Source: a virus. Taken from it: a stretch of 64,000 nucleotides of DNA. A program made the translations under genes and the position numbers. The stretch spans positions 64,001-128,000 of IMG/VR virus record IMGVR_UViG_3300027917_001949. One strand, given 5' to 3'. This document shows, in pieces, positions 20,979-28,497 of this stretch (its first letter is position 1; every line of letters starts with the position of its first letter). Under the pieces are notes generated by a model. The model saw only the letters and a program-made list of their open reading frames with translations, was not told the origin of the DNA and made no database searches.

Positions 20979-21007
20979 ATTATACCACGTGTTGAGCTAT
21001 TTGTCAA
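20979..21007 (-). promoter_or_regulatory. Sigma70-type promoter, probably leaderless transcript
   Basis: TTGACA-17-TATAAT; ATG (20973) only 5 nt downstream. Confidence 0.75.
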
Positions 21008-21392
21008 GTGCTTTGACCATCTCTCGATAGTCGGTATACTTTTCTCGTATCTCTGCTAACACTTCTTCCTTTGAGAGTCCGAATTTATCCAGTAGGTAGT
21101 TTCGCATGTCGAAGTCACGAATATATTCGAACTGACATAAAGGACAATATTTTGATGGAAGCTCGTACCTCAAGTCGTAGAGGTCATCGCTTTCCTCGTC
21201 CTCACCGGCAAACTTTGCGTCAAGCTCACCTTTATTGAGTACATATTCTTCAAGGAAAGTGTGCCCCATTTCACACTGGTACATCTCAGCTTCGTCGAGA
21301 CTCATGTCCCAACCGGATGCTTCCTCGCCGGTAATATCACAGATATAACTACTAGAACTAGAGTTACTTACGAATCCTCGTCTTATTCTCAT
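20997..21392 (-). CDS. FVSNSSS-leader family protein 8
   Basis: MRIRRGFVSNSSSSSY. Confidence 0.85.
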   Translation of the reverse strand: MRIRRGFVSNSSSSSYICDITGEEASGWDMSLDEAEMYQCEMGHTFLEEYVLNKGELDAKFAGEDEESDDLYDLRYELPSKYCPLCQFEYIRDFDMRNYLLDKFGLSKEEVLAEIREKYTDYREMVKALDK

Positions 21393-21399
21393 TACTCAC

Positions 21400-21648
21400 C
21401 TACCAATCAAATTCACAAGGTATGTTGTTGTCCCTGAGATATTTGTGTATTATCTCGTCGTGAATACTCACCTGACCATGAAAGTGCTTCTCACTCTCAT
21501 AAACATCAGTATCACCACTACTATCGAAGTCCTCCGCTTCACGAATCGCTTCACGGAATCCCTCTATCTGTTCCTCTGTCATGTCGCACTTATCGAGCAC
21601 GAATGAAGAGGAACTGGAATTACTTACAAAACCATCTCTAATCTTCAT
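21400..21648 (-). CDS. FVSNSSS-leader family protein 7
   Basis: MKIRDGFVSNSSSSSF. Confidence 0.85.
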   Translation of the reverse strand: MKIRDGFVSNSSSSSFVLDKCDMTEEQIEGFREAIREAEDFDSSGDTDVYESEKHFHGQVSIHDEIIHKYLRDNNIPCEFDW

Positions 21649-22022
21649 TAGTCCGAACTCGTCTCCCCGTAGTCTAGGTCAACTTCGTTCTTAGTAAAGG
21701 TGACACCGTACCCTGCCGCAATCTTAATGAATTCTTTCTTGAGGTCATCAAGTGACTGACCAGCACGAAAACCACTTTCAGCTTCGACCCCTACAGCATA
21801 CGGGCTATAGTCCTGCATAAGTTGACCATCGTCAGCAGTCTCGTAGTCAGCCTCGTTACCAATGAATACCAATCGTTTACCCTCATTGAGACCACCCCAT
21901 CCCCACTTAGCTTCATCCTTTTCGGCTAACTCTCGGAGTCTCGGGTCACCGTAGTTGGCAACACCGACAATCATGTAGCTACTTGAACTACTATTACTTA
22001 CAAACCCTGCTCTTACTTTCAT
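21648..22022 (-). CDS. FVSNSSS-leader family protein 6
   Basis: MKVRAGFVSNSSSSSY. Confidence 0.85.
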   Translation of the reverse strand: MKVRAGFVSNSSSSSYMIVGVANYGDPRLRELAEKDEAKWGWGGLNEGKRLVFIGNEADYETADDGQLMQDYSPYAVGVEAESGFRAGQSLDDLKKEFIKIAAGYGVTFTKNEVDLDYGETSSD

Positions 22023-22398
22023 TTTACCTTACCTTTCCGCAAGTCGGACAAATTTTCAACGACCAATACTTGTCTTGCCACTCTTTCAAGATACCTGAAT
22101 CGGTTTTCATATGCTTCACGGTGGCATATCTCAGGTCATCCATTTCGTCCACACTTTTAGCGTTATTAATTAACTGTCGTAATTCTGCGACTGTATCTAT
22201 TTGTCTCGCAACCATCCCTTTTCCCCTAGCTGTTTCCACGCATCATCATAATTTCGTGCATTAACAAGTTCGACATCATCTATATCAGCCGTACCGTCTT
22301 GTCTGATGTCTTCAAGAACGTCATTGACACTTTGTATGTCATTTGCGTTATAGATGACGACTCCACTTATTTTGTACGCTATAAATTTACCCATTTTA

Positions 22399-22758
22399 TC
22401 ACCCCATATGTACTCGTGTGGCGTCATATGCTTCTTCGATTATTTCAAATAATGCATACGGTATAGTATTGTCGCTATGGCTGTAGATAATCACCTTACC
22501 CACCAAATCGTCGTTCTCTTGTAGTTTTGACGTCCTATAATATCCTAAATAATTTCTCAAAGTATCTGTGTTAGTGTTTTTATCAATTTTAATAGGTGTG
22601 TCAAATACTGCGTGAAACGCATACTCATGTCCGGTCATGACGTTGTAAAGCATTAGTAACCACCTGAGTTCGGTCTCTATTTGTTCTGGTTCTCTGTCCG
22701 TTTCACAAATAAACGCTTCACTAGAACTATTGCTTACGAACCCTATTCTAATCTTCAT
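22399..22758 (-). CDS. FVSNSSS-leader family protein 5
   Basis: MKIRIGFVSNSSSEAF. Confidence 0.85.
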   Translation of the reverse strand: MKIRIGFVSNSSSEAFICETDREPEQIETELRWLLMLYNVMTGHEYAFHAVFDTPIKIDKNTNTDTLRNYLGYYRTSKLQENDDLVGKVIIYSHSDNTIPYALFEIIEEAYDATRVHMG

Positions 22759-22979
22759 TCTACTGCTACTACTGCGGTAACTTCGGGAATTTCGTGCTGT
22801 AGTATCCTCTCAATCCCTATTTTTAGAGTTAGGGATGCCATGGCACACCCATCACACGCACCTTTGAGCCTGACCGACACTATACCATCATCAGTAACAT
22901 CGACAAGCTCAACATCGCCGCCATCACGGATTAACATCGGTCTTATGTATTCTAGTATTTCTTCTACTTTCTCTCTCAT
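22755..22979 (-). CDS. NifU/Nfu-type Fe-S cluster carrier (C-terminal domain)
   Basis: IRPMLIRDGGDVELV...LKGACDGC...TLKIGIE. Confidence 0.93.
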   Translation of the reverse strand: MREKVEEILEYIRPMLIRDGGDVELVDVTDDGIVSVRLKGACDGCAMASLTLKIGIERILQHEIPEVTAVVAVE

Positions 22980-23302
22980 AACAATTCCTTTATTCTTTCC
23001 CTATTAACCAAGTAGATAGCTCCCTCTTCAGGTCCGGCTAATATCTCAACACCAACATCATACTCATTGAGTACCTCGCTCAGAACGATGATAGAATCAT
23101 TATCATCTTCCTCATACAACACCCCTTTATCAATAAGTTTCTTGAAGCTGTGTTGAACGTCCTCGACTGTTACTTCAAGCTCGTAGGGGTAGTTCTCGAT
23201 AGCTTTCTCGATGTCACCATCCGATAATGTAAAGTTATCCGGTAGCAATACCATGAACGAACTACTTGAACTGTTGGATACAAAACCATTTCTTATTTTC
23301 AT
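22976..23302 (-). CDS. FVSNSSS-leader family protein 4
   Basis: MKIRNGFVSNSSSSSF. Confidence 0.85.
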   Translation of the reverse strand: MKIRNGFVSNSSSSSFMVLLPDNFTLSDGDIEKAIENYPYELEVTVEDVQHSFKKLIDKGVLYEEDDNDSIIVLSEVLNEYDVGVEILAGPEEGAIYLVNRERIKELL

Positions 23303-23450
23303 CTTCTCAATTCCTTTATTAACGCACTACAACGTTTATAGTACTTACATTTTTTACCAGTGCAATCGAAGTATCTACTCAGTCCACTCATAGTACTAAG
23401 ACTACGTTCCAGACAAGCTACTAAATCTTTAGCCTCGGTTAGACTGAGCA

Positions 23451-23813
23451 TTAAAACCCTTCCTCGCTATGAATTATGTCGATTCCTGGCGTTTCTGGTA
23501 TACCGTGGTTACATAAGAATGCTGCCAAGTCATCCCCATCATCTGTATAGAAGTTACCGACAAGTATTTTATTACCCTCATTCAATGATGCTATACACCG
23601 GTCATACTCGTTCTGTACGTACTCGTCACGTTCACCGTACTGCCAGTATATTTCTTCAAAGTATGCGTCTAAAGCTTCTTTACTTTCGATTACTTCATTT
23701 GCATATTGCGACAAGTCAACCCGTATATGTAGAACAATCTCTGTCGCATCCTGTACTCCGATAATAAAACTGGTCGAGCTTGAATTACTAACAAACCCGC
23801 TTCTCGTTTTCAT
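23451..23813 (-). CDS. FVSNSSS-leader family protein 3
   Basis: MKTRSGFVSNSSSTSF, GGAGG SD. Confidence 0.85.
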   Translation of the reverse strand: MKTRSGFVSNSSSTSFIIGVQDATEIVLHIRVDLSQYANEVIESKEALDAYFEEIYWQYGERDEYVQNEYDRCIASLNEGNKILVGNFYTDDGDDLAAFLCNHGIPETPGIDIIHSEEGF

Positions 23814-24148
23814 AGTCCCTCCTGACTTTTGCACAAATTTCTATGATGTTCTCTTGTGCCGTTATTAAACCATTGATAAGTTTAAGTTCTTTCTCCAATT
23901 GGTCACGTACACCGATTAAATCTTTTTGAAGTAACTCAAACTCAAAGGCTGCTTTATTTATTTTAGCTATAAATTCTTCATTCATTCTATTGGATACTCA
24001 TAGAAATACAGTTTCCACGGTTTCTCCTTATTCGATGCTTTAAACCGTAATGTGCAATAAAACGGTGCAGGGTTACCCTCATCGTTCCAAAACCATTGTT
24101 CTTCTAGTGCGTGCTTTCTATACTTGAATGTTTTCGTCGCACAGTACT

Positions 24149-24697
24149 TCATAGATGACCTCGTTCTAAAAATTCTTTCCTGCTGATTCGTTCTATGCTT
24201 GGTTGTTTCAAGTGATATTTAACCATAACGTCATCAACACCATACATCTCCATCCATAACCCATAATTTTGAGCAATAACCATTTTATGATTACCACCTT
24301 TCCAGAAGACATGCTGGTGTCCGTAGTTTATCGTGGCTAAGAATGGTATCCTGTTTTCGAGCAACCATGTAATCACCTCACCCTGATTACACATTATGTA
24401 ATATCCGTAATTAAGTTCAAACTTAAAATACTGGTCTACCTCAATAATAAAATCATCCTCATCAACTCTTGGTTCTGGTGGTATATTACTCTTATAGTCT
24501 GCGTCTCGACGAATTCCAAGTTCTAATTCACTCGGTGAGTCGTGATTAATGGCAAAGAAACCGTAGTCCTTGAGTAGCTTGATTTGCTTGTCCGACAAAC
24601 GTGGTTTTATGCCATGAATTTCATCTAGGATTAACCTGTGCCGAACTACAAAACTACTAGAACTACTGTTACTGACGAAACCGTGCCTGATTTTCAT
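24149..24697 (-). CDS. FVSNSSS-leader family protein 2
   Basis: MKIRHGFVSNSSSSSF, ATGA-coupled. Confidence 0.85.
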   Translation of the reverse strand: MKIRHGFVSNSSSSSFVVRHRLILDEIHGIKPRLSDKQIKLLKDYGFFAINHDSPSELELGIRRDADYKSNIPPEPRVDEDDFIIEVDQYFKFELNYGYYIMCNQGEVITWLLENRIPFLATINYGHQHVFWKGGNHKMVIAQNYGLWMEMYGVDDVMVKYHLKQPSIERISRKEFLERGHL

Positions 24698-25203
24698 TGC
24701 CATTCCTCGTGGTACATGTTACGACACCACCTACCATCACGCATTTCAGCTTCAACATCACCTGAGCAACCCTCACCATAGTCACCGATACGGAAGCAAT
24801 AAACGACTTTCCCAGGAAAATTTACCAGGAGTCTTTCGGCTCTCTCGATACACTTTTCCATGTATTCGCTATCCCATTCCCACTCATAATCCCACTTGTA
24901 GGCATCTGCTTCGGTTTCGTCATCGTAACGCCAACCACCTGTACGTATCAGTCTGGCTAATTCACTCCTTTTTCCATTGCCGGTGAAGCACTTAAACCTT
25001 TCTTTGCACGAGTCGCACTCTGGTTGCGGTGGGTTGCAAAGTAATATTCCTTTCTGTCGTTTCATCCACGTAAGTAATAACTCAGCTTCTTCAAGACTTG
25101 CACCTTTGGACATAAGTTCAATAGGCAGAGTCGGTCTCTTATCCAATACGATAAGAAAACTAGCCGAACTGCTATTACTTACGAAACCACTACGAATTTT
25201 CAT
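24694..25203 (-). CDS. FVSNSSS-leader family protein 1, with Cys module (CDSCKERFKCFT)
   Basis: Carries both recurrent motifs. Confidence 0.85.
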   Translation of the reverse strand: MKIRSGFVSNSSSASFLIVLDKRPTLPIELMSKGASLEEAELLLTWMKRQKGILLCNPPQPECDSCKERFKCFTGNGKRSELARLIRTGGWRYDDETEADAYKWDYEWEWDSEYMEKCIERAERLLVNFPGKVVYCFRIGDYGEGCSGDVEAEMRDGRWCRNMYHEEWQ

Positions 25204-25405
25204 GCTTTATCCATTGACTTGTCCAGCATGTGAATCTAAACTCACACCCACCACAAGCTTCGTTCTTCTCCATCCACGTTGCACTATTTTCACTTGCTTT
25301 AAATGTCACCGCTCGACATCTGTCCATGTATGACTGCATTGTATATGAATTTTCAGTGCCGAACGGTGACAATAATACATTGATATATCTAGTCTTACGT
25401 GTCAT
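25190..25405 (-). CDS. Hypothetical Cys-module protein (CGGCEFRFTCWT)
   Basis: Recurrent motif. Confidence 0.65.
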   Translation of the reverse strand: MTRKTRYINVLLSPFGTENSYTMQSYMDRCRAVTFKASENSATWMEKNEACGGCEFRFTCWTSQWIKHENS

Positions 25406-27261
25406 CGCAATAGACTTATAAACGTATCCTTTTCAATGGTCTCAGGAGACAGGTCAATGTCGGCATCATCTGGTGAATCAACCATTTCCGCACCTGCATC
25501 AGATAGAACCTCAGCTAGGTCAATCGGATTCTTGTAGTAGTTGATTAACCACTGCCTGCTATGCTCTGAATAGTCATTTGAGCGTGACGTTATTGACCTA
25601 CCAAGATTTGTCTCGGCAAAGTAGAATCTCGTCATCTCAGAACCAGTAACCAATAACCCCAACATTTTTTGTTTGTCGGTTTGCGTAGAGTTTGTGATAA
25701 CCTCGACGTTATTAGGGTCAACGGTACGCTTGTTCCATAATCTTTCCTTGTTTGATGCTACTAATATCTTGAATGGTACAGGAACGCTCGCATTGTAATT
25801 GAAGTAGTTCAAGTACATTAGATACGCTTTTTCCTCTTTCTGCTTCTTCACGTAGTACAACTCTGTCGCACCATTACGTGCATCAGTAAGGTCACCTGAG
25901 AATAGAACCCTATCCTCGTAACGGTATGAGGCATCCCATCCAAATTTCGTGTTCAGTTCAACTAACGAAAGGTCAAGGTCGATTCTGTGACCATCGACAT
26001 TCTTCCAGTAGACACCGGCAACCATGTTCGTTGGTAACTCTACATAACTTCCAGATGGTAAGTTACCAGTAAACTGCTTCTCTGTAGCAGGAAGAGCATA
26101 GTGTATGGTATCAGGTATGTATACTTTCTTACCCTCTACATTACCTGCTATATCCTCAACGATTGAATACATCACATCATCAAGAACTGATGTAACTTCG
26201 TCCTGCTTAATAAAGCTGAATGACTTCGCATAACCACGCCCATTACGTATCCTATAAAGGATTGATGGTGACTCGCTCAACCTGAACTTAAGAGCATATG
26301 CAAGTCTAATCTTTCTGAATACATTTACGTCATTAATTGCATTAGCAAATGTTTCGTGGTCAAATGTACCCTGAGCTATCTTTGCTGTAACAAGATTAAG
26401 GTAGTCCTCCGGTAGTGGTGTGTGATGTTTAGGGGCAAGACGACGTACCTTGTTAACCAATGTCTTTAGTCTCTGATTAGTTCTGAATGCTAAGAACAGC
26501 GGTTTGAACCTGTAGAATATCTTTGCCAATTCCTGTAATCCATACTGCTTCTCGTAATCGGTGAATATTTTGGTTACATGAAGATTGTCTGTTGATTTGA
26601 TTTCCTGTATTACAGCACGGCTCTTGATTAGAAGAGTCTTACCGGTTGCCTTGTAGATGGCATAACGTAATAGCTCAGTCGGATTCTTTGGAATTAGACC
26701 GGCATATTCATATAGCATTATTTTGACTTCTTTATTCTTCACCTTTTCGAAGTCAGTGAAGTCAACAAACAGAGCAACCTCTACCACCGCTTTGATGGTG
26801 TCGGTATGTAATGCAATACCAGATTCAAGCATTGCTATCAGCTTCTCAGTTAGTTCCTCTTTCGTATACCCCTTGATGACAGTCAGCTTTATTTTATCCA
26901 ACTTCACCTTGGGAACGTTTAGAGCTTCATCCGGTATATACACATAGTCGCTGTCAATACCAAAAGCTTCGAAACCATAGGTAGTAAAGTAGTGCATGAT
27001 TTGCTCAATAACAAGTTGCTCGATACTGGCATCACGAACTTTTGCCCAGGATTTGTGGAAGGTGCTGTTCATTTGCTCGCCAGAAAGACCAACGGTCTTG
27101 GTGACCAGTTCGACTAACTCGTTATAGTTGGTATAATTAGCAATAACCTCCGGTGCAAAAACGAATCCGAGTGGTATCGTTCGTTTCATCAATGCTTCAT
27201 CGGTCTTTGTCTCCCTCTTGTTTATAGGTAATGCTCTGAATAATTTAATTGTTGCTTCCAT
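25402..27261 (-). CDS. Large conserved phage protein with TerD-like C-terminal region
   Basis: About 619 aa; VYW...RIDLDLS...GWD...FSGDLTDA pattern resembles TerD-like domains. Confidence 0.65.
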   Translation of the reverse strand: MEATIKLFRALPINKRETKTDEALMKRTIPLGFVFAPEVIANYTNYNELVELVTKTVGLSGEQMNSTFHKSWAKVRDASIEQLVIEQIMHYFTTYGFEAFGIDSDYVYIPDEALNVPKVKLDKIKLTVIKGYTKEELTEKLIAMLESGIALHTDTIKAVVEVALFVDFTDFEKVKNKEVKIMLYEYAGLIPKNPTELLRYAIYKATGKTLLIKSRAVIQEIKSTDNLHVTKIFTDYEKQYGLQELAKIFYRFKPLFLAFRTNQRLKTLVNKVRRLAPKHHTPLPEDYLNLVTAKIAQGTFDHETFANAINDVNVFRKIRLAYALKFRLSESPSILYRIRNGRGYAKSFSFIKQDEVTSVLDDVMYSIVEDIAGNVEGKKVYIPDTIHYALPATEKQFTGNLPSGSYVELPTNMVAGVYWKNVDGHRIDLDLSLVELNTKFGWDASYRYEDRVLFSGDLTDARNGATELYYVKKQKEEKAYLMYLNYFNYNASVPVPFKILVASNKERLWNKRTVDPNNVEVITNSTQTDKQKMLGLLVTGSEMTRFYFAETNLGRSITSRSNDYSEHSRQWLINYYKNPIDLAEVLSDAGAEMVDSPDDADIDLSPETIEKDTFISLLR

Positions 27262-27276
27262 TCTTCTCCCTCTGCC

Positions 27277-27496
27277 GGAAAGGGTGGTCATATTCACGGT
27301 ATTTCCGATTGTGGAACTAATCCACTCAGCCTGACCACCCTTCCGAACTAATGCGGCGAGCAGTATAAAAATGCAAAGTTTATTTTATAGGAACTGCTTC
27401 TGCCGTTATTTACCTGAGCGAGTAGTAAATATCGCACAGCCATCCCACCCGTAGGTAGGTAGGCTGTAAGTCAGAAATAGGAACTACTTATGCTCA
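27277..27496 (-). ncRNA. Three tandem RNA hairpins; two share a covarying motif
   Basis: GCA(T/G)AAG(T/C)AGTTCCTAT...TACT(A/G)CTCGC in two units (27353-27406, 27415-27496); third hairpin GGAAGGGTGGTCA/TGACCACCCTTTCC. Confidence 0.55.
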
Positions 27497-28497
27497 TATT
27501 CCAAACTGAGATTATACACTGGACAACTTCTACAATTACTTAATACTCGTGTACGGAACATCTTTGTTTCCTCAGCATTCCACACATCTCGTACAAAATC
27601 CTCACATCCCAGTACATCCACACCGGAGAACTCGGGTTCACCCTCAGAAAAACTGCATGGGTATCCTATTCCATCGACATTAATGTAGTAGGAAAACAGT
27701 GTACTCTCACACGGTTCGGACATTGTTTTGTATAGTTCGTAATTCTTATCGTCCTTAACAGCTTCCAAGAAATTGTTAGCCGTACAACTATCGAATCCGA
27801 ACTTACCACCGACCTTGACCGCAAGGTCTATCAACTCTTTGAATTTCTCCATAGAGTCCAGTTGTTTTAGAGTATTCCTTTCCCCTTTCGGTTTTAACCA
27901 CAAGAACACTACAGCGTTTAATTTCGCTAGACGGGGGTCTGCAATCCGGTCACGCAGCACGTTGCAGCATTTTTCATAGGTTAGTTTTGAAAGGAGACAG
28001 TGTATGTTAACCTGTTCCATGCCTTTGTCTGTTAAATTCTTAACAGCATTGTAACAGGTATCCTTGTCGTAGAGACTGACGGCGACTGCACCGCAGGTTT
28101 TCACCAGTCGGTCATACCGCTCGTCAGTCATCCGTTCACCGTTTATGGTGACATTGGGGATAACGTTGTTATCACGACAGTAATCCATTATCTTCCACAT
28201 ATCGGGATTGCCGTCAATGTCCCCGATTCCGAAAGCAATTTGTGTGAGGTGTTTGGGGAATTTATCGAACATTGTCTTAAATGTTTCAAATTCCATGTAG
28301 TCACCGTACTTAATGTTAGATTTGTAACACCATAGACATTGTCTACTACATACAGTGCTAATTTCTATGTCCATTATCTCCGGTCCAAATGGCGACCAAT
28401 CAGGGTCATCATCTTCAGTCTTACCCCAACGAGCAAAGAACCCGTTAGTTGTGTTGAATACAAAATTATAATCCGGTGATTTGAATTCTTTAAACAA
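27484..28497 (-). CDS. Radical SAM protein with C-terminal SPASM/Twitch-like Cys
   Basis: CSRQCLWC (CX3CX2C); CES..YINVDG..YPCSF; CRSCP. Confidence 0.9.
   Translation of the reverse strand: MFKEFKSPDYNFVFNTTNGFFARWGKTEDDDPDWSPFGPEIMDIEISTVCSRQCLWCYKSNIKYGDYMEFETFKTMFDKFPKHLTQIAFGIGDIDGNPDMWKIMDYCRDNNVIPNVTINGERMTDERYDRLVKTCGAVAVSLYDKDTCYNAVKNLTDKGMEQVNIHCLLSKLTYEKCCNVLRDRIADPRLAKLNAVVFLWLKPKGERNTLKQLDSMEKFKELIDLAVKVGGKFGFDSCTANNFLEAVKDDKNYELYKTMSEPCESTLFSYYINVDGIGYPCSFSEGEPEFSGVDVLGCEDFVRDVWNAEETKMFRTRVLSNCRSCPVYNLSLEYEHK

Follow-up and report, generated by a model that had tools for sequence, protein, structure and literature searches.

A serine-rich N-terminal tag shared by phage proteins is linked to a radical SAM enzyme in phages and in bacterial immune-type operons

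Eight small acidic proteins of a 153-kb phage begin with the same 16-residue serine-rich tag and are encoded beside one radical SAM iron-sulfur enzyme. The tag-plus-enzyme pair recurs in many phages, including RB43, and in bacterial immune-type operons. We infer that the pair is probably an undescribed tag-directed protein-modification system, although our confidence in the covalent mechanism proposed below is no better than even. A literature search found no paper that describes the tag.

RESULTS

Eight tagged proteins are encoded in one array. We analyzed a 64-kb window (positions 64,001 to 128,000 of IMG/VR record IMGVR_UViG_3300027917_001949). Eight minus-strand genes between 20997 and 25203 begin with M[KR]xRxGFVSNSSSxS[FY], and thus the original observation of eight clustered proteins with a common leader is confirmed. 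A six-frame motif scan found no other copy in the window or in the whole 152,753-bp genome, so eight copies within 4.2 kb are not due to chance. Moreover, serine codons (AGT/AGC/TCN) differ between copies, which points to selection on the protein rather than a DNA repeat.

The tagged proteins differ in length and in body. The gene at 24694-25203 encodes 169 aa (MKIRSGFVSNSSSASF...) and also carries the Cys module of the phage, CDSCKERFKCFT. The gene at 24149-24697 (182 aa; start MKIRHGFVSNSSSSSF) has a predicted alpha/beta body and full-length homologs in other phages; its start was corrected to the ATG at 24697, which overlaps the upstream stop as ATGA. The gene at 23451-23813 (120 aa; MKTRSGFVSNSSSTSF) was likewise corrected to start at the ATG at 23813, which has an AGGAGG 4 nt upstream. 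The genes at 22976-23302 (108 aa; MKIRNGFVSNSSSSSF) and 22399-22758 (119 aa; MKIRIGFVSNSSSEAF) follow, and the latter belongs to a widespread "SSSEAFICET" subfamily. The genes at 21648-22022 (124 aa; MKVRAGFVSNSSSSSY) and 21400-21648 (82 aa; MKIRDGFVSNSSSSSF) are next. Finally, the gene at 20997-21392 (131 aa; MRIRRGFVSNSSSSSY) has a Cys/His zinc-ribbon-like part followed by helices. It belongs to a large subfamily (178 of 663 tagged proteins) to which the bacterial tagged protein is distantly related (HMM link to the bacterial bodies, E = 1.4e-8).

The original prediction held that the bodies look unrelated, and this is mostly right. The eight proteins fall into seven BLAST clusters, with the 108- and 119-aa members in one loose single-linkage cluster. 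More broadly, the 663 tagged proteins split into 139 BLAST clusters, 108 of which are singletons.

The enzyme is a radical SAM protein with a twitch/SPASM-type C-terminal domain. The gene at 27484-28497 (337 aa) lies on the minus strand 2.3 kb upstream of the array. It matches PF04055 (E = 4e-8), PF13186 (SPASM; 21.9 bits against a cut-off of 21.5), and phrog_7293 (1e-79). The CxxxCxxC motif for the SAM-binding cluster (C50, C54, and C57) is invariant in an alignment of 13 phage homologs and in another of 7 phage plus bacterial homologs, and the auxiliary cysteines C238, C263, C281, and C325 are also invariant. The bacterial homologs keep the full CX2CX5CX3C SPASM motif, whereas the window enzyme keeps only C325-x2-C328 and thus is closer to twitch type. 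A family-specific N-terminal extension of about 43 residues is conserved from phage to bacterial homologs. No PqqD-like RRE domain was found in Pfam or NCBIfam, and NCBIfam returned only sub-threshold maturase hits. The nearest solved relatives by profile are BtrN (4m7t) and SkfB (6efn), each at an E value of about 4e-5.

Two other genes at the locus are not part of the conserved module. The gene at 22755-22979 on the minus strand encodes a 74-aa NifU/Nfu C-terminal-domain protein (PF01106; E = 6e-28) and is translationally coupled to both neighbors by ATGA overlaps. Nfu had been proposed to belong to the system, but it appears in none of about 190 other loci, and we regard it as a local accessory rather than a conserved partner. 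The minus-strand gene at 25402-27297, between the enzyme and the array, encodes a 631-aa protein with no Pfam hit. A full-length homolog occurs in only one other contig (L056/L076), and L114 and L127, two others of the loci surveyed, give only weak partial matches of about 100 residues. Similarly, the Cys module was proposed to link two tag systems, and this was not supported. Only 5 of 663 tagged proteins have the module, all from this phage and its closest relatives, and the module occurs about 29 times in this window alone. The module on this one member is a lineage-specific graft.

The tag and the enzyme are linked in both directions. In a tag-anchored scan of IMG/VR, 41 of 74 viral loci have an enzyme homolog (39 to 78% identity) within 10 kb on the same strand. 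Of the remaining records, 5 of 5 that are at least 90% complete have the enzyme elsewhere, while five large incomplete records (40 to 88% complete) carry tags but no detected enzyme. In an enzyme-anchored scan, 71 of 80 loci have tagged ORFs, and 295 of 296 of these ORFs are on the strand of the enzyme. The nearest tagged ORF is within 1 kb in 50 loci and within 100 bp in 21. Among same-strand neighbors, only the enzyme (79 loci) and tagged proteins (73 loci) are widespread, and the next family is found in 17 loci. Thus, the link is not plain synteny, and no third gene family is conserved.

Complete cultured phages gave the same result. T4, RB69, RB49, and CC31 have neither part, whereas RB43, GAP161, and Vibrio phage D479 have both, and presence and absence agree in all six complete phages tested. 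One alternative is that the tag works independently of the enzyme, for example as a sorting, degradation, or assembly signal, and that the enzyme is simply a co-inherited neighbor in the same early-gene region. Indeed, T4 internal proteins share a short N-terminal capsid-targeting sequence on diverse bodies, and in GAP161 and RB43 the tagged genes are about 20 kb from the enzyme. The pair persists, however, while every flanking gene family changes. Moreover, a T4-type capsid-targeting sequence ends in a prohead-protease site (L/I-x-E) and is restricted to virion-packaged proteins, but the tag has no Glu and no such site, and it also occurs in bacterial chromosomal and plasmid operons where no virion exists. 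We consider independent function unlikely.

Bacteria encode the pair in a compact operon. In a scan of GTDB genomes, 24 of 36 tag loci have the enzyme. These include a tight four-gene operon in Acidobacteriota, Verrucomicrobiota, and Chloroflexota that encodes an Avs2-like NTPase, a small protein, a tagged protein, and the radical SAM enzyme. The same operon is found on Agrobacterium and Rhizobium plasmids. The NTPase has SMEK_N plus NACHT and matches PADLOC Avs2 at an E value of 2e-23 and NF041813 at 3e-15, the latter below its cut-off. The phage window has no such gene.

The tag is predicted to be a disordered tail. That the leader is just the first strand of a shared fold had been named in advance among the findings that would refute the original interpretation. 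Two members were modeled with AlphaFold2. In the 182-aa protein (pLDDT 80), residues 1-11 score below 50 and are coil, and the first strand is 14-21. In the 131-aa protein (pLDDT 88), the first ten residues average a pLDDT of 48, residues 1-12 are coil, and the first strand is 13-17. The two predicted folds differ, and neither has a PDB fold match. Residues 13-18 (SSSF-h-h) do form the first strand of the body in both models, and thus the leader might be only the first beta strand, plus a phosphate-binding-type loop, of one divergent family. Residues 1-11 are the most conserved part, however, and are modeled as disordered coil outside both folds. We conclude that the shared-strand reading is largely refuted and very unlikely.

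Natural variants narrow the tag. The tag core is identical while the enzymes are only 30% identical, and thus the tag is more conserved than the enzyme. Lineage variants show that G6 and S9 are dispensable, and the constant core is FV(S)NSSSxSF. G6 is D in 115 of 118 proteobacterial members and S, Y, F, K, or A in phage lineages, and S9 is Ala in all four copies of L114 and in others. One might suppose that G6 is a glycyl-radical site, as R-x-G-F superficially resembles the RVxG[FWY] motif and the partner is a radical SAM enzyme that could be its activase. The variants at G6 refute this reading, which we consider highly improbable. Moreover, the Arg spacing differs, the enzyme is of the SPASM/twitch type rather than the PflA type, and the site lies on a predicted disordered tail rather than buried in a barrel. 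Tag variants are shared by all copies within a genome (all QSFVANSSS in L114 and all N[YF]FVSNSSS in L100, another of the loci), and bacterial tags are of R-x-G or K-h-D type. The concordance fits co-evolution with one genome-specific partner, but it could also come from paralogy.

DISCUSSION

How the tag and the enzyme work together is best explained, in our view, by a two-component module. One radical SAM enzyme of the twitch/SPASM class would serve a set of client proteins that share a flexible N-terminal tag, M-K-h-[RK]-x-[GD]-F-V-S-N-S-S-S-x-S-F. Our analysis shows that tag and enzyme co-occur and sit next to each other across phages and bacteria, that the tag is more conserved than the enzyme, and that the tag is attached to different (predicted) folds; that the enzyme binds the tag and changes it chemically is inferred. 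Thus, the original interpretation, that the leader is a recognition and modification site for diverse cargo, is supported only in part. In this view, the enzyme binds the free tail directly, perhaps with its N-terminal extension in the absence of an RRE, and uses the 5'-deoxyadenosyl radical to make a covalent, probably oxidative, change inside the invariant FVSNSSS core, where N10, S11, and S12 are the only residues that never vary. Candidate chemistries are dehydrogenation of Ser to formylglycine (as in anSME and BtrN), an aromatic-to-C-beta crosslink at F7-V8-S9 (as in Fxs and Hxs), or epimerization. A covalent change is pure inference, and the variants at G6 and S9 remove two candidate sites. 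Moreover, the tag is far more conserved than an enzyme recognition site usually needs to be, and it may therefore have another function. If the model is correct, modification would activate, stabilize, or arm the diverse acidic bodies, which are probably host-takeover or anti-defense proteins. Nfu would be a private helper of this phage that supplies [4Fe-4S] clusters to the enzyme and/or to the many Cys-module proteins.

Alternatively, the tag might serve for docking only. The tag could tether each client to the radical SAM enzyme, or in bacteria to the Avs2-like complex, without being chemically changed, and the bodies could be adaptors that aim the enzyme at third-party substrates or decoys that tie up a host enzyme of the same family. 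Docking explains the same co-occurrence data, tag variants travel with enzyme lineage, and extreme conservation is typical of a peptide held in a conserved groove. In the published KpAvs2 operon, a small accessory protein binds Avs2, and a radical SAM accessory is needed only against some phages (PMC11564622). Twitch/SPASM enzymes that lack an RRE, however, normally take their peptide substrate into the active site, and adaptor-guided radical SAM enzymes are not known. Moreover, invariant small polar residues (N-S-S-S) are odd for a pure docking motif. A docking-only role is not excluded, but we consider it the less likely possibility.

Why phages and bacteria share the module may relate to conflict between them. 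We speculate, and consider it unlikely on present evidence, that the serine tag is a common currency of phage-bacterium conflict. Bacterial Avs2-like immune operons would use one tagged protein plus the enzyme as a regulatory or effector module. Large phages would have captured the enzyme and fused the tag to dozens of different acidic proteins, such that a new kind of radical modification of an Asn/Ser motif arms them as counter-defense or host-takeover factors, or lets them act as decoys for the enzyme of the host. The tag heads at least 21,749 protein clusters at the 50% identity level, and nearly all annotated ones are viral hypothetical proteins. Thus, a function established in one system, such as RB43, GAP161, or the Agrobacterium pAt cassette, could assign a biochemical context to a very large block of viral dark matter and could also reveal a new radical SAM protein modification. 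It may explain the unexplained radical SAM accessory of Avs2-type immune operons, and a short tag that directs an enzyme to any fused protein might be usable as a tool.

Known systems resemble the module in part. RiPP-type radical SAM/SPASM maturases of the sactipeptide, streptide, and triceptide classes are also encoded beside several substrates that have a conserved recognition segment and a variable rest. The clients here, however, are proteins of 60 to 282 aa (median, 131) with confident predicted folds rather than short peptides, the conserved segment is the very N terminus and is probably itself the site of modification, and there is no RRE and no conserved protease or transporter. The anaerobic sulfatase-maturating enzyme (anSME/AtsB) and BtrN are also radical SAM enzymes with auxiliary clusters and no RRE, acting on a Ser-containing motif of a whole protein. 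The tag lacks the (C/S)-x-(P/A)-x-R motif, however, and there is no sulfatase domain. TIGR03942 scored 29.7 bits against a cut-off of 349 for a bacterial homolog and did not hit the phage enzyme, and similarity to BtrN is weak.

Antiphage systems offer further parallels. The KpAvs2-Avap1-Avap2 operon of Klebsiella pneumoniae (Bechon et al. 2024, PMC11564622) encodes an Avs2 STAND NTPase, a radical SAM protein of unknown function (Avap1), and a small protein that binds Avs2 (Avap2). The bacterial operon found here encodes an Avs2-like STAND NTPase with a putative nuclease-type N terminus followed by small proteins and a radical SAM enzyme. The published operon has three genes and this one has four. 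Neither small protein matched DUF6375 (PF19902) by HMMER, and the Atlas showed no PF19902 in the clusters of the tagged protein. The phage module has no Avs2. In the HXS antiphage system (HxsA-D; PMC13128918), a radical SAM enzyme matures a protein effector at a Ser/His motif (SHRSS, +8 Da) in phage-bacterium conflict, which provides a precedent for radical SAM-dependent modification of a protein effector. F7-V8-S9 of the tag is an aromatic-x-Ser triplet and would fit the aromatic-x-X3 motif that is crosslinked in three-residue cyclophane systems (Fxs/Xye/Grr/Hxs), but S9 is Ala in all four copies of L114 and in others. HxsA, however, is a secreted basic protein with internal repeats, and the system has two radical SAM enzymes and HxsD. 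HxsC family models hit the phage enzymes only at 17 to 20 bits, against cut-offs of 268 to 500. Finally, FxSxx-COOH peptides are paired with a radical SAM-SPASM enzyme beside STAND/AP-ATPases in VMAP conflict systems (Kaur et al. 2020, PMC7159879). No FxsB family hit was found for the enzymes here, but in both cases a variable protein with a conserved F-x-S-x-x piece is paired with such an enzyme next to a STAND NTPase. Here the motif is N-terminal and no peptidase is conserved, whereas there the motif is C-terminal and is released by a peptidase.

Organization of the tagged gene array

Eight genes on the minus strand between 20997 and 25203 encode products that begin M[KR][IVT]RxGFVSNSSSxS[FY]. 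Two start codons were reassigned. The gene at 23451 starts at ATG 23813, which has an AGGAGG upstream, and the gene at 24149 starts at ATG 24697, which overlaps the preceding stop codon as ATGA. With these assignments all eight proteins carry the motif at residue 1, and thus the observation in the original prediction, that eight clustered proteins share an N-terminal leader, is confirmed. A six-frame scan found no further copy in the window or in the whole 152,753-bp phage record, which also holds only one large CxxxCxxC protein. A DNA-level repeat or gene conversion could have produced the shared leader, but serine codons differ between copies (AGT, AGC, and TCN), and the upstream DNA is unrelated. 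We conclude that the conservation is selected at the protein level. Interleaved with the tagged genes on the minus strand are five small, putative untagged ORFs of 50 to 76 aa (22024-22239, 22197-22427, 23299-23451, 23788-23985, and 23982-24152), none of which has a family hit.

The radical SAM gene (27484-28497) has PF04055 and a SPASM hit just over its cut-off and matches phrog_7293 at 1e-79. For the tagged proteins, Pfam and NCBIfam gave no significant hit, PADLOC gave none for the two proteins that were tested, and PHROGs gave only phrog_7397, a family of unknown function whose first 19-38 positions correspond to the tag. Moreover, megablast of the region and tblastn of the body of the 131-aa protein against GenBank phages gave no match.

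Nfu and a cysteine module (described below) are peculiarities of this phage lineage. A 74-aa NifU-domain gene (22755-22979; PF01106, E 6e-28) overlaps both of its neighbors by ATGA, and the original prediction treated Nfu as a component of the system. NifU was found in none of the other loci, however, and we reject it as a system component. A 631-aa protein (25402-27297, minus strand) lies between the enzyme and the array and has no Pfam hit, although a weak partial hit points to an MXAN_6230/SCO0854 RING-domain family (E 1e-3). It too was rejected as a component, as a full-length homolog occurs in only one other contig, the related L056/L076, where it is 65% identical and sits in the same position. 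Finally, a cysteine motif, CxxCxxRFxC[WFY]T (the Cys module), occurs about 29 times in six-frame translation across the window (e.g., at 332, 1049, 2347, 14440, 17255, 20478, 20668, 25017, 25255, 30256, and 51467), on both the plus-strand block (1-8 kb) and the minus-strand block, and often at the C terminus of small ORFs. One tagged protein carries the module, and the original prediction proposed that it links two tag systems. That proposal was rejected, as the module is on 5 of 663 tagged proteins, all from this phage or close relatives.

Distribution of the tag

The tag is widespread. A 32-column profile of the tag, searched against 1.84 billion representative proteins, found 21,749 clusters at an E of ≤0.001, and among the 150 best hits listed the match almost always started at residue 1. 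In the 663 unique tagged proteins collected here, the residue frequencies are K2 98%, R4 99%, F7 99%, V8 96%, S13 90%, S15 93%, and F16 93%, while position 5 is free. The bodies have a median length of 131 aa, and 96% are net acidic, with a median charge of -11. They fall into 139 BLAST clusters, 108 of which are singletons, and their ESM Atlas neighbors are clusters of viral hypothetical proteins. Some predicted proteins in the database (P0121-P0129) contain two complete tagged proteins in one ORF, the second tag keeping its own Met, and these are either real fusions or read-through calls in phages with a recoded stop codon.

Association of the tag with the radical SAM enzyme

The tag and the enzyme are linked in both directions. 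Starting from the tag, 41 of 74 IMG/VR loci have a homolog of the window's enzyme (39-78% identity) within 10 kb on the same strand. Among the other records, 10 have it elsewhere, including 5 of 5 that are at least 90% complete. Starting from the enzyme, 71 of 80 loci have tagged ORFs, 1-13 per locus, and 295 of 296 of these are on the enzyme's strand. The nearest tagged ORF is within 1 kb in 50 loci and within 100 bp in 21. Simple synteny could account for such a link, but clustering of all same-strand neighbors showed that only the enzyme (79 loci) and tagged proteins (73 loci) are widespread, and the next family, which looks like a dUTPase, is in 17 loci. Thus, the pair persists while everything around it changes, which argues for function rather than synteny.

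Cultured phages also carry the pair. The enzyme is in 172 GenBank phage records, many of them named T4-like myoviruses (vB_..M_) of Klebsiella, Enterobacter, Cronobacter, and Escherichia coli. GAP161 has it together with two tagged proteins, GAP161_106 and GAP161_111. Among six further complete genomes, T4, RB69, RB49, and CC31 have neither part, RB43 has two tags and the enzyme, and Vibrio phage D479 has five tags and the enzyme. We note that the RB43 radical SAM gene (NC_007023.1, 92778-93789) matches in two pieces (model positions 3-302 and 299-332), which could be a frameshift, a sequencing error, or a split gene. In a few viral loci (L016 and L032; L015), the homolog matches in two separated pieces, which suggests an insertion, an intron or a homing endonuclease, inside the gene. 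In D479, a homing endonuclease gene abuts the enzyme gene.

Predicted structure and natural variation of the tag

The leader might be no more than the first strand of a shared fold, a condition that had been set beforehand as one that would refute the prediction. AlphaFold2 with family alignments gave confident bodies, with a pLDDT of 88 for the 131-aa protein and 80 for the 182-aa protein. In both models, however, the N-terminal tail is coil with low confidence: the first ten residues average a pLDDT of 48 in the 131-aa model, and residues 1-11 are below 50 in the 182-aa model. The first strand starts at residue 13 or 14. One body is predicted to be a Cys/His zinc-ribbon-like module followed by helices and the other an alpha/beta sheet domain, and Foldseek found no significant PDB match for either. 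Thus, the conserved M1-S12 segment is predicted to be a free tail on different folds, and only SSSF-h-h is predicted to be structural.

Natural variants narrow the residues that matter. In viral locus L114, all four copies read QSFVANSSS (G6S and S9A), in L100 all three have Y or F at position 6, and L080 has K, S, or A at position 6. One bacterial clade reads M[KR]IRxGFVSNSSSTSF, and another reads MKIK[LF]DFVSNSSSTSF. G6 and S9 are therefore dispensable, which excludes a glycyl radical at G6 and weakens an F7-S9 cross-link. F7, N10, S11, S12, S15, and F16 are universal or nearly so. Moreover, variants are shared within a genome (z = 6.3, 10.9, 3.4, and 3.2 at positions 3, 5, 6, and 9, respectively), which fits coevolution with one partner, although paralogy could contribute.

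Features of the radical SAM enzyme

C50, C54, and C57, as well as C238, C263, C281, and C325, are invariant from phage to bacteria. So is an N-terminal extension of about 43 residues (F14, G19, and P39) that other SPASM enzymes lack. Bacterial homologs keep the full CX2CX5CX3C motif, while the window enzyme keeps one pair of it. The nearest solved relatives by profile are BtrN and SkfB (E about 4e-5), and NCBIfam hits (mycofactocin, tungsten-enzyme, GeoRSP, and HxsC maturases) are all far below their cut-offs. No RRE domain is present.

A bacterial counterpart

Only 36 tag loci exist in 185,579 species genomes, mostly MAGs, and 24 of them have the enzyme. Ten or eleven of these, from Acidobacteriota, Verrucomicrobiota, and Oscillochloris on contigs up to 1.47 Mb, share a tight overlapping four-gene operon that encodes, in order, a SMEK_N + NACHT NTPase of about 945 aa whose center resembles Avs2 in PADLOC and, below the cut-off of the model, in NCBIfam, a 128-aa protein, a 137-aa tagged protein, and the radical SAM enzyme, 30% identical to the window's. 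The flanks of this operon are not conserved, and a literature search on the SMEK domain was uninformative. The bacterial tagged body is distantly related to the 131-aa phage subfamily (E 1.4e-8), but the 128-aa gene has no phage homolog among the loci collected here. The same cassette is on the pAt plasmid of Agrobacterium tumefaciens Ach5 (locus L198; NZ_CP011248.1, 20854-25306), and thus in a cultured, tractable bacterium, as a SMEK protein, a 121-aa protein, a tagged 131-aa protein (MKLKMDFVSNSSSTSF), and radical SAM. A (p)ppGpp synthetase gene and an integrase gene lie near it. Orthologs of its tagged protein occur in Brucella, Rhizobium, Proteus, Photobacterium, and Methylomonas.

Interpretation and comparison with known systems

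The interpretation in the original prediction, a protein modification system in which the leader is the recognition or modification site for diverse cargo, is only partly supported. The analysis establishes the tag itself and gives good support to a functional link between tag and enzyme. That the enzyme covalently modifies the tag is, by contrast, an inference, and while it is the best reading of the data, we consider it only about as likely as not. The main rival is that the tag serves for docking only.

Full-text literature searches for the tag motif (SNSSS and GFVSNSSS) and for a phage rSAM/SPASM system found no description, and none of the three related papers considered here describes this tag. 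A Klebsiella Avs2 operon was shown to need a small accessory protein, Avap2, which binds Avs2, and, against some phages, a radical SAM protein of unknown function, Avap1 (Bechon et al. 2024, PMC11564622). PF19902 does not hit either small protein of the bacterial operon found here. The HXS system shows that rSAM enzymes can covalently mature a protein effector at an SHRSS motif (PMC13128918), and rSAM-SPASM modification of FxSxx peptides has been predicted next to STAND NTPases (Kaur et al. 2020, PMC7159879).
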